Shown in pieces: positions 48,755-54,400 of a stretch of DNA of 64,000 nucleotides. The notes below the pieces were generated by a model. The model was not told the origin of the DNA. It did no database searches and saw only the letters and a list, made by a program, of their open reading frames with translations. Positions within the stretch are counted from its first letter, which is position 1; the number at the start of each line of letters is the position of its first letter. The stretch comes from Pseudovirgaria hyperparasitica. Taxonomy: Eukaryota. The position numbers and the translations under genes are program-made. Location of the stretch: the NCBI GenBank assembly GCA_010093815.1, contig ML996575.1, one strand, 5' to 3'.

Positions 48755-50774
48755 ATGGCGACGTACGCAGACTATCCTGCCACTATGCCTCCTCATGACT
48801 TCGACCTCTACCCTTCCCAAGACTCCTACGACATCTCCCAGCCCTATCTCCCTTCCGACTTTATCAACAACACTGCCTTTACCACATACGACTCTCAACC
48901 AACGACACATGCATACTCCAACCTTTCGCAATATACCTACCCGCTGCAAGGCCAACAGGTGAAGAACACCTTCCAGACACAAACACCCTCGGGCTCGCCT
49001 CACTCCCTGTCGCATTCCTTTGACATGCAACCTCCCAATCTTTCGGCATCGAGCGAATCTGGTGCATCCGTCTCTTCGTCTGCCATGGGATCACCGTCCT
49101 TGAATCACCAATATCAGGAAGCGTGGGGTCCTCTAGATCAAGGGCTTGCCATTGATCAGGGCATGTTGAAGGATAGCTTCTTGCCAGAAAGCTACAACCC
49201 TGCCTTGGACCTGGAATACGCTGGTCTTGTCGCTAATGACAAGCTATCAGGCTGTGTTGGTGAGTCGGAACACATTTCTTCGAGTACAGGCGGTCTCGTA
49301 TTTCCTTTTGTCCGTCGTCAGTTGCCTCTTGCGATGCCTTCAGTCGTCAGCAGTGGATCTCCTTCAAGTCAATCAACCATCATGTCCACACCATCTACAC
49401 TGAGTCGCGTGGACACGTCTCTTTATAACGTCTTCAAATCTCCTACTACTCCCGCGTCCGCCATGACACCAAGCACTGCACAGTCTCCATTTTATAGAAG
49501 AGAGTCGAGCCAGTTGTCCAAATCAATCCAGAGCCCAAGCAGACATCGGCCGCGTAGGAATTCACTTCTTTCGACTGAAGTGTTTCCTGACTCCCAACTG
49601 TCACAGCCTGCCAGCCTTTCTCCTTCATCTCCGCAGTCAATTGCTTCTCAGTTTTCTCAGTTCATACCGCCAATTGGCACATCTTGTCGGTTTCCATTTT
49701 CCAGTCAATATGCGTGCTTTTTGACTGCTTTGACGCATGGGACATGCAGTACTGACTGTAGATATAGATCCCACACTCATTCAACCCTTCCCGTCGCCAC
49801 TTCCATACGCCGCATCACCATACCCTGAATTCCGCACACCCCACTTTCCCTTTGTCGAGCAACCACCATCGCCCGCACCATCTCATAGCTCTTCCCGCAG
49901 TCAGCACACCGACTCGAGACGGTTCAAGAACTCTGGTAGCCAATCTCCATATCTACATACTGCACAGTTTCAGCCATACGGTGCATGGCATGGCGGCCGT
50001 CGACCATCCGTCTCTTCGATACACTCTCGACATTCCACACAAAGCCGTAGGAGTGGGAGCTACGAGCTGGACGAAGAGTCGCGTGAGAAAGGTCTCTGTC
50101 CCATTCCAGAGTGTGGTCGTGTCTTCAAGGACTTGAAGGCGCACATGCTCACTCACCAGAATGAGAGACCGGAGAAGTGTCCGATTGTCAACTGCGAGTA
50201 TCACCAGAAAGGTTTTGCTCGCAAGTATGACAAGAACCGACACACCTTGACGCACTACAAAGGGACCATGGTCTGTGGTTTCTGCCCTGGCTCAGGCTCG
50301 GCTGCCGAGAAGAGCTTCAACCGTGCAGATGTGTTCAAGCGACACTTGACGTCAGTCCATGGCGTTGAGCAGACCCCGCCCAACAGTCGCAAGAAGTCGC
50401 CGACCACGTCAAAGAAGTCCCACGCTGTTCTACAGAATGCTGCTGGTACTTGTTCGACTTGCAGCGTTACTTTTGTCAATGCACAAGAATTCTACGAGCA
50501 TCTCGACGACTGTGTCCTGCGCGTAGTGCAGCAAGCTGATCCCAGCGAGGCCATCAACCAAAAACTCCTCTCGTCTGTTGCAGATGACCAGGACGTCAAG
50601 GACACGATGGAACGCAACTATCTTCCCACCGACGACGTTATCGCACCTACATATGACGAGCAAAACGACGATGAGGATGACGACGAGGACGAAGACGAAG
50701 ACGCCACCTATGCATCGCGCACCACGCGCTCTGGCAAGGGCGGTCTCAAGTCGAAGAAAGACAATCAGCATTGA
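48755..50774 (+). CDS. C2H2 zinc-finger transcription factor
   Basis: acaATGG start; intron from donor 49260 (G|GTGAGT) or 49686 to acceptor 49767 (or 49761), branch ACTGAC 49751-49756; fingers CPIPECGRVFKDLKAHMLTH, CPIVNCEYHQKGFARKYDKNRHTLTH, CGFCPG...FNRADVFKRHLTSVH, CSTCSVTF...FYEHLDDC; acidic tract; TGA 50772-50774. Confidence 0.93.
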
Positions 50775-50834
50775 CAATCAGCGGCCTCCCGGGGCGGCGT
50801 GGTGCAACAACCCACCAGCCAAGCCGGGGGAGCC
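50772..50834 (+). promoter_or_regulatory. Candidate stop-codon readthrough signal: TGA-CAATCA plus 3' GC-rich stem-loop
   Basis: TGA CAA TCA matches stop-CARYYA; 50783-50792 can pair with 50824-50834, starting 8 nt after the stop. Confidence 0.65.
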
Positions 50835-51191
50835 CCCAGCAAGATCATGAAGCGCAGCCAACGCGCTGGCCTAACCTACTCCAAAGGAGGCGTCGCCATC
50901 TCCAGCGCCGGTCGCAAGAAGAAGAAGAACTATCCTCTCTCCTGGGGCTGTTCCATCGACAAGATGAAGATGAAGAAACGCGTCTTGTGCGTCTACGATG
51001 GCTCCCGTCGGCTATGGAAGGACGACATGATGCTCGACCAGGAGTTCGAGGTTCGCATCCCGATGCCGGACGGCCGGGGCTATGTTACAGACCTCGACGT
51101 CCAGACGCTGAATCGCGCCGATGCTCTACACGCAGCGACTGAAGAGGAGAAGGGCCCTTGGACGGAGAACACCAACATCTCTGGCCTATAA
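50775..51191 (+). CDS. In-frame C-terminal extension (138 codons) of the C2H2 factor beyond the TGA
   Basis: Same frame as the zinc-finger exon, no stop until TAA 51189-51191, C/G-ending codons like the upstream exon, non-repetitive sequence GLTYSKGG...GRKKKKNYPLSWGCS...KMKMKKRVLCVYDGSRRLWKDDMML...YVTDLDVQTL. Confidence 0.75.
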   Translation, partial: QSAASRGGVVQQPTSQAGGAPSKIMKRSQRAGLTYSKGGVAISSAGRKKKKNYPLSWGCSIDKMKMKKRVLCVYDGSRRLWKDDMMLDQEFEVRIPMPDGRGYVTDLDVQTLNRADALHAATEEEKGPWTENTNISGL

Positions 51192-51499
51192 TCTGTGCCC
51201 TCGACACGGTCCTAAAACACATATATCTTCTCTACGTCGTTGTGCATTACCTACAAAACCCGCCTGTCCTTGACCCACCCCACACCATAGGACTTGTACT
51301 TCTACCTACCTCACGCCAATGCGAATCACTCCCAGGCATGGCCCTCCCAACCCAAAAAAAACTCACTTTTTTCTCCTCCATCATTCTATTACCCTTACTT
51401 CTCTTCGAATGGACATATTTTTTGACGATGAAAATGCATGAGCGATGTGTATGATGGGATCTTAATTCTGGGCGGGAGCTTGGACTAGTAAGCACCTGC

Positions 51500-54400
51500 A
51501 TGGTTCTTCTTTTTTTTAACTACAAAGTAGCGATACCATGACTTTATGTTTTTTTTTTTGATTATTGTTTTCGCTTTTTTTTCTTTCTTTTGGGGTGTGT
51601 GTGTGTGTGTGTGCGAATGGAAAGGACGGAACGTGCTGGTCGCGGATTTTGGTCGCGAGTACTTCGTTTTTAAAAGGCTGGCTGGCTGGGGATACACAAT
51701 ACATGCATACATACGTTGTTTGGGCTTGCTTGCTTGTGTTGCGGTGTGAAGCTGTGATGCTGTGAACTGATACTGTAATGTGCTGTGCCTTTTCGTGTTT
51801 TGTCGGCTGTTGAATGTCGTTGTTGTCCACAGCCCTCTTCTCCCTTGCTTGCTGTTTGTTTCCAACGCATTTCTCTGTGTATGTGTATGTTGTATGTGCC
51901 GCATGCACGCACGCACGGCGGTACGGCGCGAACACGGCTGTCCATACCATACCTGATTAACTACCATATCTAACCACCATACCATACCAGCCTTGTCGCA
52001 ATGCTATGCTATGCTGTGCTATTTTATGTTATGTTATGCAGTGGCTATCCCTATTCTCGTCTCGCCTGTCTCGTCGTCGTCGCCTTTTATGTTGTTGGTC
52101 CTGGTCATCTGCCCCCTTGCTTGCTTGCGTGCGTCTAGAGTATCTTCCTGCTGTGCCTCTAGGTAGAGAAAATCACGCGTGCTGTATGTGTATATGTATG
52201 TATGGGTATATGTCTATATATATATGCGATGGCTGTAGTGATTCGCTTGCTTTCACGGCATGTGTGTATGGATACGTATATATGTGTGTATGGATATATT
52301 TCTATGTATGTTTGTCTATGTATGTGTGTCTATGTATGTGTGTCTATGTATGTGTGTCTATGTATGTGTGTCTATGTATGTGTGTCTATGTGCTTTATAT
52401 GTTTTCTATGAGTGCCTCGTCGTCGTCGTCGTCGTCGTCATCGTGCTTGTAGATGGCAAAGTGCTGGTCTTCTATTTCTCTATCTAATCCCATAGCGCAT
52501 CAAATCAAGAACAGGAACAAGAACAAGAACAAGAACATGAACAAAACAGAACCAGACCACCACCCGCACAAAGCGCACTGCGATATCTACGGATGGACAC
52601 CGGGGGCTCAGTGCTCAGTGCTCAGTGCTCGGTGGCCCGGCTGCTTGGGTCTTGGGTTTGGGTTGGGTTCAACTGGGTTGGGGAATGGAAAGGGTAGGCT
52701 AGGCTGGGTTAGCGCTAGGATTTAAGCGCTAGGCCGGAGTAGGCTGGATGAGGGTAGGGAGGGTCAGGCTAGAGAAGGGTAGAGACTAATAGAGAGGGAG
52801 ATCGCATCGCGGCGCTAGCTTGGATTGGACTGGACTTGACTTGGTTGGTTTGGACTAGCTTGGGATATATAGTATCGAGCTAGCATCTCGCTGCCTGGAT
52901 AGATGTCAGTCTAGGGAGGTAACAGAGCAGAACAGGACAGAACAGGGTGATGCCATGCCATAGAAGACTACGCTAACGCACCGATCGCACCGATCTGGTT
53001 GTTCCAGTAGCCGGGATAACGACACCTTGCAGTCAGTACTTACACCGGCCGGAGTGACTAGACGGATGTGGATTCTCTGCTTTGTTTCTTTGCTATGTAT
53101 GTAGGTGAGGGGTTGATGCCTTGCCTTGGGGCGCGGATCGTTCTGGGTGTGAGTTTGGACGTGGGTGTGCGTGTGGGTGTAGGTGTAGAGGGGCATGGGC
53201 ATCCTACTATTCCCGGGGTGGACTAGGGGCGGTGAGGGACACCGCTATGGACATATCTACATACAGAGTAACAGAGACACGCGGCTCATGGTTGCTTTTT
53301 CCGTCGCGAAGACGGATCATATGCGTAGTATGCGTGAAATGTGTAGGGTCTATGGTTGCATGTATGCGAGTGAGTGTATGTATGTTGCACAGCATTTTAA
53401 CAGTTTTGATTAAGAGGCTTGGGAATTTGCCTGACGGGCTTGGAGAATCAGGCCATTATGGCGTGGTTTTTGTTTGTGGGTTGGATGTGTATGTGTGGTA
53501 TGTTTGTTATCCAAGGAAGTAGTTCTAGACTTTTTCACCTATTGCCATAATAATCAACACCGATACGATGCGATTGATGGATTGGAGCATCTTTCGTCTG
53601 ATCTGCCTAGACTGACTTTCTCTCTTTCCGTGGGTCGACGGTCGAGGTCGGACAGACAGCCAGGTCACGTTTTTCTTCTTCCATCTTCCCTTGATTCTCT
53701 GGTTCTACACTTACTAAACTAACCAACAAGCCATGGCGCGCGCGTCCGCTACCGGGTTCCTGTTTAGGACGGCCCACTCGGAGATTTTCCTTGGGTGGGC
53801 GCGGCGGAGGGGGGGAAACTTATTTAGTTTTCTTGAGGAGGCTTGCATCGTTTCGCTATGGAGATACTAGATGCTGCTCGCTCTTTGTTTGTTGCTCACA
53901 TGCTGCTGCAGAGATTGTGAGAAGGAGGGGAACGGATGAGAGTCGTGTGTGTTTGTTTCTAGATTGGGGCGCGTGATGTGTGTTCGTGTTGTGTCGGGAG
54001 ATGCCATGCCATGCCAGGCCAGACCAGATTCAAGCTTCCGCCATGGACGGGAAGGTGAAGATCTGGAGCCCGTGAAAGTTGTGGATGATGCCGAAAGTGT
54101 GGCGTTCTAAGCAGAATGAGACGACGATGCTGGATGGTTCATTGATGGTGATGATGCTTCATTCGGGCTGCTTCCTCGGAGTAGCTACCGACCTCCTGAT
54201 TATGAGGTGGGCTTCTTCGCCCCGCACACAACCATCATTAACCAGAATACCCAGATTACCCATCCCGTCGCACAGAGTATCCAGTACAATATCTACATTC
54301 GGCGGCGGCATTGTTTCGTTCTTCAAGTCAATATCCGCCATGGAAAAAATCTTTCCGAGCGAACTATCGTTATGGTCATGGTTATCGATTGGGGCGGTTT

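Follow-up and report, generated by a model that had tools for sequence, protein, structure and literature searches.

Probable programmed UGA readthrough into a conserved C-terminal domain of a C2H2 zinc-finger transcription factor of Pseudovirgaria hyperparasitica

The window analyzed here is a stretch of 64,000 nucleotides (nt) of contig ML996575.1 (assembly GCA_010093815.1) from Pseudovirgaria hyperparasitica. On its plus strand, which carries all features described below, lies a gene for a C2H2 zinc-finger transcription factor that is found across Pezizomycotina, and our subject is an in-frame TGA between the zinc-finger exon of this gene and a further open frame, which we propose to be a leaky stop codon. 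In the major, short splice form, coding exon 1 (48755..49259) begins with the ATG at 48755 and is separated by a 508-nt GT..AG intron (49260..49767) from exon 2 (49768..50771). Exon 1 is defined by its open reading frame (ORF) and, like the intron, by a joint from 49258/49259 to 49767/49768 in contigs of two sequencing runs, X3 and X4. Exon 2, which is supported by a Pfam zf-C2H2 hit and by protein matches, encodes the zinc-finger region, an acidic tract, and the tail RSGKGGLKSKKDNQH. In the window sequence and its ORF list, the 3′ end of exon 2 reads GAC AAT CAG CAT TGA, with the TGA at 50772..50774, and is followed by CAATCA (50775..50780), an instance of the stop-CARYYA motif. The frame of the zinc-finger exon then stays free of stops for 138 codons (50775..51188) and is closed by TAA at 51189..51191, the end of the proposed long form; AT-, T-, and repeat-rich DNA resembling an untranslated region (UTR) is found only 3′ of this TAA, and the 3′ UTR (51192..51900) reaches at least 51900. 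The extension consists of a variable linker (50775-50867) and a conserved C-terminal domain (50868-51161), and its first in-frame ATG is at 50847. The short splice form comprises 503 amino acids (aa) up to the TGA and would comprise 642 aa with readthrough; the corresponding sizes for a long splice form are 645 and 784 aa. An earlier note on this DNA, made from the sequence alone, had described the terminal TGA of the exon, the 138 open codons, the UTR-like DNA after 51191, the 503- and 642-aa isoforms of the short splice form, and the first ATG of the extension, and all of these agree with the sequence.

The proposed signal was compared with that of related loci. Metagenome contigs were scanned with a protein alignment of the extension (alignment A1), by which 268 relatives were confirmed, and the best 80 loci were kept. 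As landmark motifs we used FYEHLDD of the last finger and RLWKDDM of the C-terminal domain. Both were present in 76 of the 80 loci; the remaining four (L032, L050, L071, and L075) had one motif missing and were dropped. In all 76 loci and in the window, the two landmarks are in one frame. Between the landmarks, 53 of the 76 loci have a single in-frame stop, located at the homologous site, and the other 23 have none. All 54 stop-bearing sequences (53 loci and the window) have TGA at this site, always followed by CAA-YYA, with the hexanucleotides CAATCA (27 sequences), CAACTA (14), CAATTA (11), and CAACCA (2). Clustering at 92% nucleotide identity gave 51 clusters, 34 of which carry the stop (the window counted), and TGA, CAA, and YYA are present in 34/34 of these. 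The stop-CAR-YYA context that the earlier note had recognized in CAATCA is therefore conserved throughout the stop-bearing sequences, and the possibility, raised in the same note, that all orthologues have a sense codon at this site does not hold, as TGA-CAA-YYA is kept in 53/76 loci and 34/51 clusters.

The pattern of conservation is that of a nucleotide signal. The residue encoded after the glutamine differs among the 34 clusters (Leu in 16, Ser in 16, and Pro in 2), and the third base of its codon is always A; since this base is fixed although the residue varies, conservation acts at the nucleotide and not at the amino-acid level. At third positions, the entropy is 0 for the stop and the two codons that follow it, as compared with 0.45-1.79 bits for neighboring codons. 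Elsewhere in the same genes, CAA accounts for a fraction of 0.41 of Gln codons, and third-base A for 0.14 of Leu/Ser/Pro codons. At the true terminal stops of these genes, C at position +4 was found in only 4 of 34.

Protein sequence comparison identifies the extension as the conserved C-terminal domain shared by a family of C2H2 factors across Pezizomycotina. A search restricted to longer proteins returned 598 matches at E ≤ 0.001 (best 1.9e-54), and the 120 matches that were listed are all C2H2 proteins of 258-907 aa with the precomputed tag PF28332.1. In view of these 598 matches and of the same stop and hexanucleotide in 53 of the 76 loci, the open frame is far beyond chance. In an exhaustive profile-free search, the domain was located at the C-terminal end of most long matches, in proteins of ∼400-1300 aa. 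A local Pfam scan of the 138-residue extension returned no family, PF28332.1 being outside the library used, and a literature search found PF28332.1 named in no paper. Alignment A1 contains the motifs GLTxSKGGV, GRKKRKNYPxSWG, KMKMKKRVLCVYDGxRRLWKDDMMLDxEFEVR, YVTDLDVxT, and EEKGPW. The basic cluster at 50913..50927 is RKKKK in the window and RKKRK in most relatives and is near-invariant in alignments A1 and A3; by its composition it is a possible nuclear localization signal (NLS). The AlphaFold model of the extension is a small β-hairpin with a helix, with a mean predicted local distance difference test (pLDDT) score of 65 and values of ∼80-87 over residues 60-130. Comparison of the model of the domain with the PDB by Foldseek gave no match at E ≤ 0.001, a VIA-align wide search did not rise above noise (highest Z 3.3), and no usable match was found in the ESM Atlas. 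Among the weak structural rows with Z of 2.1-2.5 (residues ∼54-129), also within noise, were several SNF5/SMARCB1-type repeat domains, to which we give no weight and which are at most a lead to the role of the domain in chromatin remodeling; the row with Z of 2.1 is an RSC module whose title does not contain SNF5. The domain is ancestral to the family and is uninterrupted in Eurotiomycete-like and Leotiomycete-like orthologues. Thus, the 139-aa domain that the earlier note had called hidden does lie after the stop and is conserved, but it is not newly hidden.

Selection on the downstream part was estimated from the ratio of nonsynonymous to synonymous substitution rates (dN/dS), given as medians of pairwise Nei-Gojobori values among the 34 stop-bearing clusters, with pairs of saturated dS dropped. 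The median was 0.153 for the C-terminal domain (357 pairs used, 204 dropped), 0.172 upstream of the stop (303 used, 258 dropped), and 0.576 for the linker after the stop (499 used, 62 dropped); synonymous sites are largely saturated across these lineages. Purifying selection on the domain past the stop is as strong as on the region before it, contrary to the lack of such selection that had been named earlier as a possible outcome. All indels in the 76 loci and in the cluster alignment preserve the frame.

A predicted 3′ stem-loop (50781..50840) directly follows the hexanucleotide. In most lineages the sequence after the hexanucleotide is RCA CAY YCC CGR GGY G, followed ∼30 nt later by CGGGRGT. 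An outer helix of nine pairs is formed by 50784-50792 with 50824-50831 and 50835. When this helix was evaluated on alignment A2, which contains the 34 lineages, 92.8% of cells were paired, compared with 80.7% in shuffled alignments and 31-59% when the partner strand was slid. Double-change cells numbered 35, as opposed to 10.3 expected, and none of 500 shuffles reached 35. Compensatory pair types include CG in 15 lineages versus UA in 12 at one pair and CG in 22 versus AU in 5 at another. An inner helix of three pairs is weaker (77% paired). The minimum-energy fold of the window sequence has an energy of −32.3 kcal/mol (z −1.78), and the outer helix is part of the single-sequence minimum-energy fold in seven of eight lineages tested, the window included, where it starts 6-9 nt past the stop. 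We regard the hexanucleotide as the core of the signal and the stem as a probable accessory element.

Contigs of each of the four sequencing runs of the organism (X1-X4, representing two samples and two studies) contain the TGA, no deviating letter being listed, and it also occurs in 53 other loci; a sequencing error or a strain-specific nonsense allele was accordingly rejected. The 508-nt splice joint is found in X3 and X4 contigs and is absent from X1 and X2. On this basis X3 and X4, which carry no RNA label on record, are taken to be RNA-derived. Record 8 of X3 (2453 nt) is spliced upstream and then follows 49767-51900 with 0 other letters and 0 gaps. Since this contig is both spliced and unbroken over the stop, the dominant mRNA includes the TGA together with the entire extension and no less than 700 nt of 3′ UTR, with no splicing around the stop. 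The presence of TGA in both DNA and RNA sequence, which the earlier note had suggested confirming, is thus seen in the contigs of four runs, two of them spliced. The RNA evidence consists of assembled contigs, from which rare spliced or edited species are dropped. The X4 assembly is fragmented at 50750-50840 and includes two minor variant contigs (depth 5.9 versus 1475 and 28 versus ∼1500); judging from the contig ends, the variants concern an A at 50780 and at 50810 or 50811, not at 50774. Error, allelic variation, or low-level editing could account for them.

These data bear on the first alternative to readthrough, in which adenosine-to-inosine (A-to-I) editing, possibly in the sexual stage, converts UGA to UGG and the long form is made from edited transcripts. 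Stop-loss editing of this kind is known from filamentous ascomycetes, in some cases as a conserved feature (PMC13123824); the local RNA structure beside the stop and the X4 variant contigs near 50780 and 50810 would also be compatible with it. In the same source, however, fungal editing described so far favors UAG, which makes this explanation unlikely here: 94% of Sordariomycetes have TAG at the edited DBF2 stop, and PMC13123824 presents the conserved editing of DBF2 as a trait of Sordariomycetes, whereas the stop of the present gene is TGA in 54/54 sequences from Dothideomycete-like and lichen-type lineages. Editing provides no reason for the invariant CAA-YYA. No letter other than A is listed at 50774 in the RNA-derived contigs, in which rare variants would be dropped, so the A-to-G change anticipated earlier was not seen at the TGA, and five mRNA-type contigs of other lineages (see below) read TGA as well. 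Moreover, in folds that began at the stop, and so had upstream pairing outside their scope, the stop is 5′ of the helix rather than in a hairpin loop.

A second alternative is that a minor or condition-specific splice removes the segment with the stop and that the long form is translated from a rare mRNA. The gene does use alternative 5′ splice sites upstream, some in-frame GT..AG pair spans the stop in 34/34 lineages, and several public gene models bridge the stop by an intron. Yet when in-frame GT..AG introns of 45-350 nt spanning the stop were enumerated in the 34 lineages, a good candidate, defined by a GTRNGY donor and a CTRAY branch site, was found in only 5/34, no donor/acceptor pair was common to more than three, and most lineages have no AG within ∼40 nt past the stop. 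Spliced RNA-derived contigs are available for three lineages, and all keep the segment. Besides X3 record 8, contigs L003-L006 are colinear with the genomic contig L002 save for clean GT..AG gaps of 109 nt and 110 or 537 nt, and L020 differs from genomic L019 by GT..AG gaps of 108 and 294 nt; the clean gaps identify L003-L006 and L020 as spliced mRNA copies, and these five contigs from two lineages retain the TGA and the sequence beyond it. Within the would-be intron, every indel has a length divisible by three, and a second stop never occurs. The bridging models (P0353, P0113, P0053, P0072, P0093, P0345, P0014, and P0005) delete conserved residues, among them the SGKGxIK motif and in some cases also the start of the C-terminal domain; their introns are implausible and are a typical response of ab initio predictors to an in-frame stop. 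Five other public models (P0271, P0312, P0327, P0342, and P0343) end at the TGA and do not contain the conserved domain. As there is no conserved candidate and the RNA-derived contigs keep the segment, an intron over the stop was rejected as the main route, and a rare splice event is a highly unlikely source of the long form. The earlier note had considered that the stop might be spliced out, for example through a GC-AG candidate at 50734-50781; no such joint occurs in the contigs of the four runs, and the spliced X3 contig runs unbroken through this region.

Translation of the C-terminal domain on its own, by reinitiation, internal initiation, or from a separate transcript, could make use of the ATG at 50847 in the window, and metagenome ORF callers list stand-alone ORFs of 129-147 aa (P0122-P0124). 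This explanation is very improbable. Ahead of the conserved domain and past the stop, an in-frame ATG is present in only 3/34 lineages, the first Met of the others being inside the domain, so a separate start is not conserved, and an independent start codon was rejected as the origin of the downstream product. The two parts share a frame and are separated by a single stop in all 54 sequences, an arrangement that a separate cistron would not need, and the stop-less lineages have one uninterrupted ORF. The depth of RNA contigs is similar on either side of the stop, although this is a weak measure. Finally, that the TGA is purely a terminator and the downstream frame an untranslated relic, or one kept for a role at the RNA level, is scarcely credible: public annotation does end at the TGA for the window gene and for its counterparts in at least four other species, but an untranslated relic would not keep a dN/dS of 0.15, in-frame indels, and no further stops over 34 lineages.

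To describe the distribution of the stop, groups were labeled by their best matches to named proteins. Stop-bearing sequences form three groups. The first is Dothideomycete, mostly Pleosporales-like, and includes the window; the second is lichen-type, with Lecanoromycete records nearest; and the third is divergent, with no more than 57% identity to any match listed, its two nearest proteins being an unnamed one and a Pseudocercospora record. The stop-less lineages match records from Chaetothyriales and Verrucariales (Eurotiomycetes) and from Leotiomycetes. On a maximum-likelihood gene tree of the 51 clusters with a midpoint root, the presence of the stop requires four state changes, for example one gain and three losses, compared with a mean of 14.5 changes after shuffling of the labels, and none of 500 shuffles was as low as 4. 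Two losses are visible at the sequence level. In L016/L017, TGA-CAA is replaced by GGT-CAA, and in L038/L042 about nine codons including the stop are deleted relative to the sister locus L052. Both preserve the long protein, which fits a functional long form. The two events can be viewed as natural 'repairs' of the stop that arose independently of each other.

Programmed UGA readthrough of the tobamovirus (stop-CARYYA) type, yielding a short and a long form of the factor, is in our view the best explanation and is probably correct, since the locus fits published features of stop-CARYYA signals and of 3′ structures. The earlier note had arrived at the same reading, which gains support from the conserved TGA-CAA-YYA, selection past the stop, and retention of the TGA in mRNA. 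We infer the readthrough event, its efficiency, the inserted residue, and differing roles of the two forms. In the proposed mechanism, a programmed leaky UGA has come to stand in front of the ancestral C-terminal domain. The majority of ribosomes would stop at the UGA (50772-50774), giving a protein of 503 aa, or of 645 aa from the long splice variant, that has the zinc fingers and the acidic tract and would not contain the C-terminal domain. Some ribosomes would decode the UGA with a near-cognate tRNA, aided by the C at +4 and the CAA-YYA hexanucleotide ('type I' readthrough), and the stem-loop right after the hexanucleotide probably helps. At UGA codons, decoding usually relies on near-cognate tRNAs for Trp, Cys, or Arg, and contexts of the tobacco mosaic virus (TMV) type allow percent-range to tens-of-percent readthrough in yeast. 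Readthrough would add 138 codons that comprise the linker, the basic RKKKK cluster, and the small folded conserved domain. Each splice variant would thus have two proteoforms, at a ratio set by termination efficiency, and the leaky stop combined with a conserved alternative 5′ splice site would give four.

We lean slightly toward a broader interpretation, in which UGA-CAA-YYA with its stem-loop is an ancient recoding switch between the DNA-binding part of the factor and the NLS-bearing domain. The signal would have been inserted before the split of Dothideomycete-like and Lecanoromycete-like lineages and kept since, and three lineages would have lost it, each by its own route. The ratio of the forms of the transcription factor, and with it the transcriptional programme, would follow termination efficiency as influenced by release-factor level, stress, or tRNA supply.

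Several considerations weigh against readthrough. Translation past the stop is something that we infer from sequence, conservation, and RNA contigs; assembled contigs cannot show minor spliced or edited species, and the RNA status of X3 and X4 is itself deduced. The lineages are related, so that their counts are not independent events, and no more than about one gain and three losses are required by the gene tree. As described in PMC3542737, natural CARYYA cases mostly have UAG, not UGA. The helix was picked by eye from the same sequences on which it was then tested, RNAalifold gave no consensus structure on the full 34-sequence alignment, and the z-scores of the single-sequence folds are modest (−0.01 to −3.3). 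Three of the 34 lineages (L008, L009, and L023) have no 5′ arm of the helix, yet they keep TGA-CAA-YYA. Finally, the long 3′ region after the stop might expose the mRNA to nonsense-mediated decay, a cost that the readthrough mechanism leaves unexplained.

Proposed readthrough at this locus resembles several known systems. The consensus readthrough signal is given as stop-CARYYA, with C at +4 as the key base, in PMC5397192, and according to PMC3542737 CARYYA stimulates UGA readthrough too, and 3′ structures starting ∼8 nt past the stop are common. The gene shares with type I cases (TMV replicase and Arabidopsis eRF1-1 mRNA) the C at +4 and CAA-YYA as the main conserved element, as well as the proposed occurrence of a minor, C-terminally extended form beside a major short form. 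It differs from them in having UGA in every stop-bearing lineage, whereas the natural cases are, as far as the sources describe them, generally UAG, and also in its host, a fungal transcription factor, in its covarying stem-loop, and in its extension, which is an ancestral domain and not a new tail. Type II signals of alphaviruses, tobraviruses, and coltiviruses (UGA-CGG or UGA-CUA with a stem-loop ∼8 nt on) are similar in the use of UGA, and the stem-loop predicted here would lie at a comparable position, 6-9 nt on. Unlike in type II signals, however, the next triplet is CAA in 54/54 sequences, and the stem is absent in 3/34 of the lineages that bear the hexanucleotide. The proposed mechanism is a known one, type I readthrough with a type II-like stem, and what is new is its setting in a fungal transcription factor and its very deep conservation.

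Among cellular genes, the closest fungal parallel is the dual targeting of peroxisomal enzymes in Ustilago and other fungi, which, in the description by Stiebler et al. (2014, PMC4207609), also involves UGA readthrough in a short 3′ context. There the context is UGA-CUA and a short targeting extension is added to metabolic enzymes, whereas in the window gene CAA-YYA would control a 138-residue domain on a transcription factor. Readthrough of animal transcription factor genes (Drosophila Drifter/vvl and traffic jam, and human VDR) likewise gives a second isoform from one mRNA (PMC8417969, PMC9226519, PMC5868278); these animal cases are not described in those papers as CARYYA-driven, and the window gene is fungal. 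Stop-loss editing of the FgDBF2 type shares with the present gene a conserved in-frame stop, a filamentous ascomycete host, and a functional extension. As presented in PMC13123824, that system involves UAG in hairpin loops, Sordariomycetes, and short disordered tails, in contrast to the TGA in 54/54 sequences, CAA-YYA, and folded domain described here.

The zinc-finger region of exon 2 (Pfam zf-C2H2, E 4.5e-06) contains three C2H2-like fingers and one C2HC finger and is 84-100% identical to 120 proteins among the matches listed. As counted on the window translation, the spacings are C-X4-C-X9-H-X3-H, C-X4-C-X15-H-X3-H, C-X2-C-X19-H-X4-H, and C-X2-C-X12-H-X3-C for fingers 1 to 4. NsdC/Nsd3 is described in PMC13599534 as having two C-X2-C-X12-H-X3-H fingers and one C2HC finger, and only the C2HC finger of the window fits this description. 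Identity of the factor with the developmental C2H2 factor NsdC (AN4263/Afu7g03910) was not supported: the finger fit is partial, and no match or cluster member, Aspergillus orthologues included, is so named.

The gene is also alternatively spliced upstream of the fingers. Use of a donor at 49686 shortens the intron to 82 nt and yields the long form of 645 aa; this donor is implied by the junction of the public model P0271 (an NCBI record from Pseudovirgaria hyperparasitica), which corresponds exactly to the 645-aa form and ends with KKDNQH at the TGA. The 508-nt GT..AG joint has a depth of 454 in X3 and 1313 in X4, and contigs over the retained part of 49260-49767 have depths of 87 and 258, respectively. 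Two 5′ splice sites with one common acceptor thus keep or remove a Ser/Pro-rich segment of ∼142 aa, and both forms are present in RNA-derived contigs of the organism. Alternative 5′ splicing was also seen in the L002 lineage (L003 and L006 versus L004 and L005; L002 2457-2998). At the 5′ end of the gene, X3 and X4 contigs have 255 letters before 48676 that do not match the stretch examined, and the DNA reads ctgcatag|g at this point, which suggests a 5′ UTR intron at ∼48676 with an upstream exon before 48600; the L002 and L019 lineages have an intron of ∼108 nt upstream of the coding region too. Positions 51590-51615 and 52280-52400, 3′ of the gene, contain a (TG)n microsatellite and a tandem repeat whose GT-rich unit is ∼16 nt long.

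Conserved readthrough of cellular genes is well documented in insects and mammals, and a handful of yeast genes with readthrough are known. Documented fungal cases are few, and those that we found are peroxisomal targeting extensions. The earlier note knew of no description of such readthrough for this factor. Among open-licence papers and bioRxiv preprints, a scope in which subscription papers may be missed, we found no published description of this case and no case of readthrough in a fungal transcription factor. If the interpretation is true, the gene would be, to our knowledge, the first reported example of deeply conserved CARYYA-type readthrough among cellular genes of fungi, and also the first among their transcription factors. 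It would be a motif-defined case with a strong comparative signature, consisting of 34 lineages, an invariant 9-nt signal, and a covarying stem, and it would link a recoding signal of viral type to the dosage of a transcription factor domain. The locus would also provide a natural UGA-CARYYA element with an adjoining structure for mechanistic work in fungi, and recognition of the recoding would correct inconsistent gene models across Dothideomycetes and lichen fungi.

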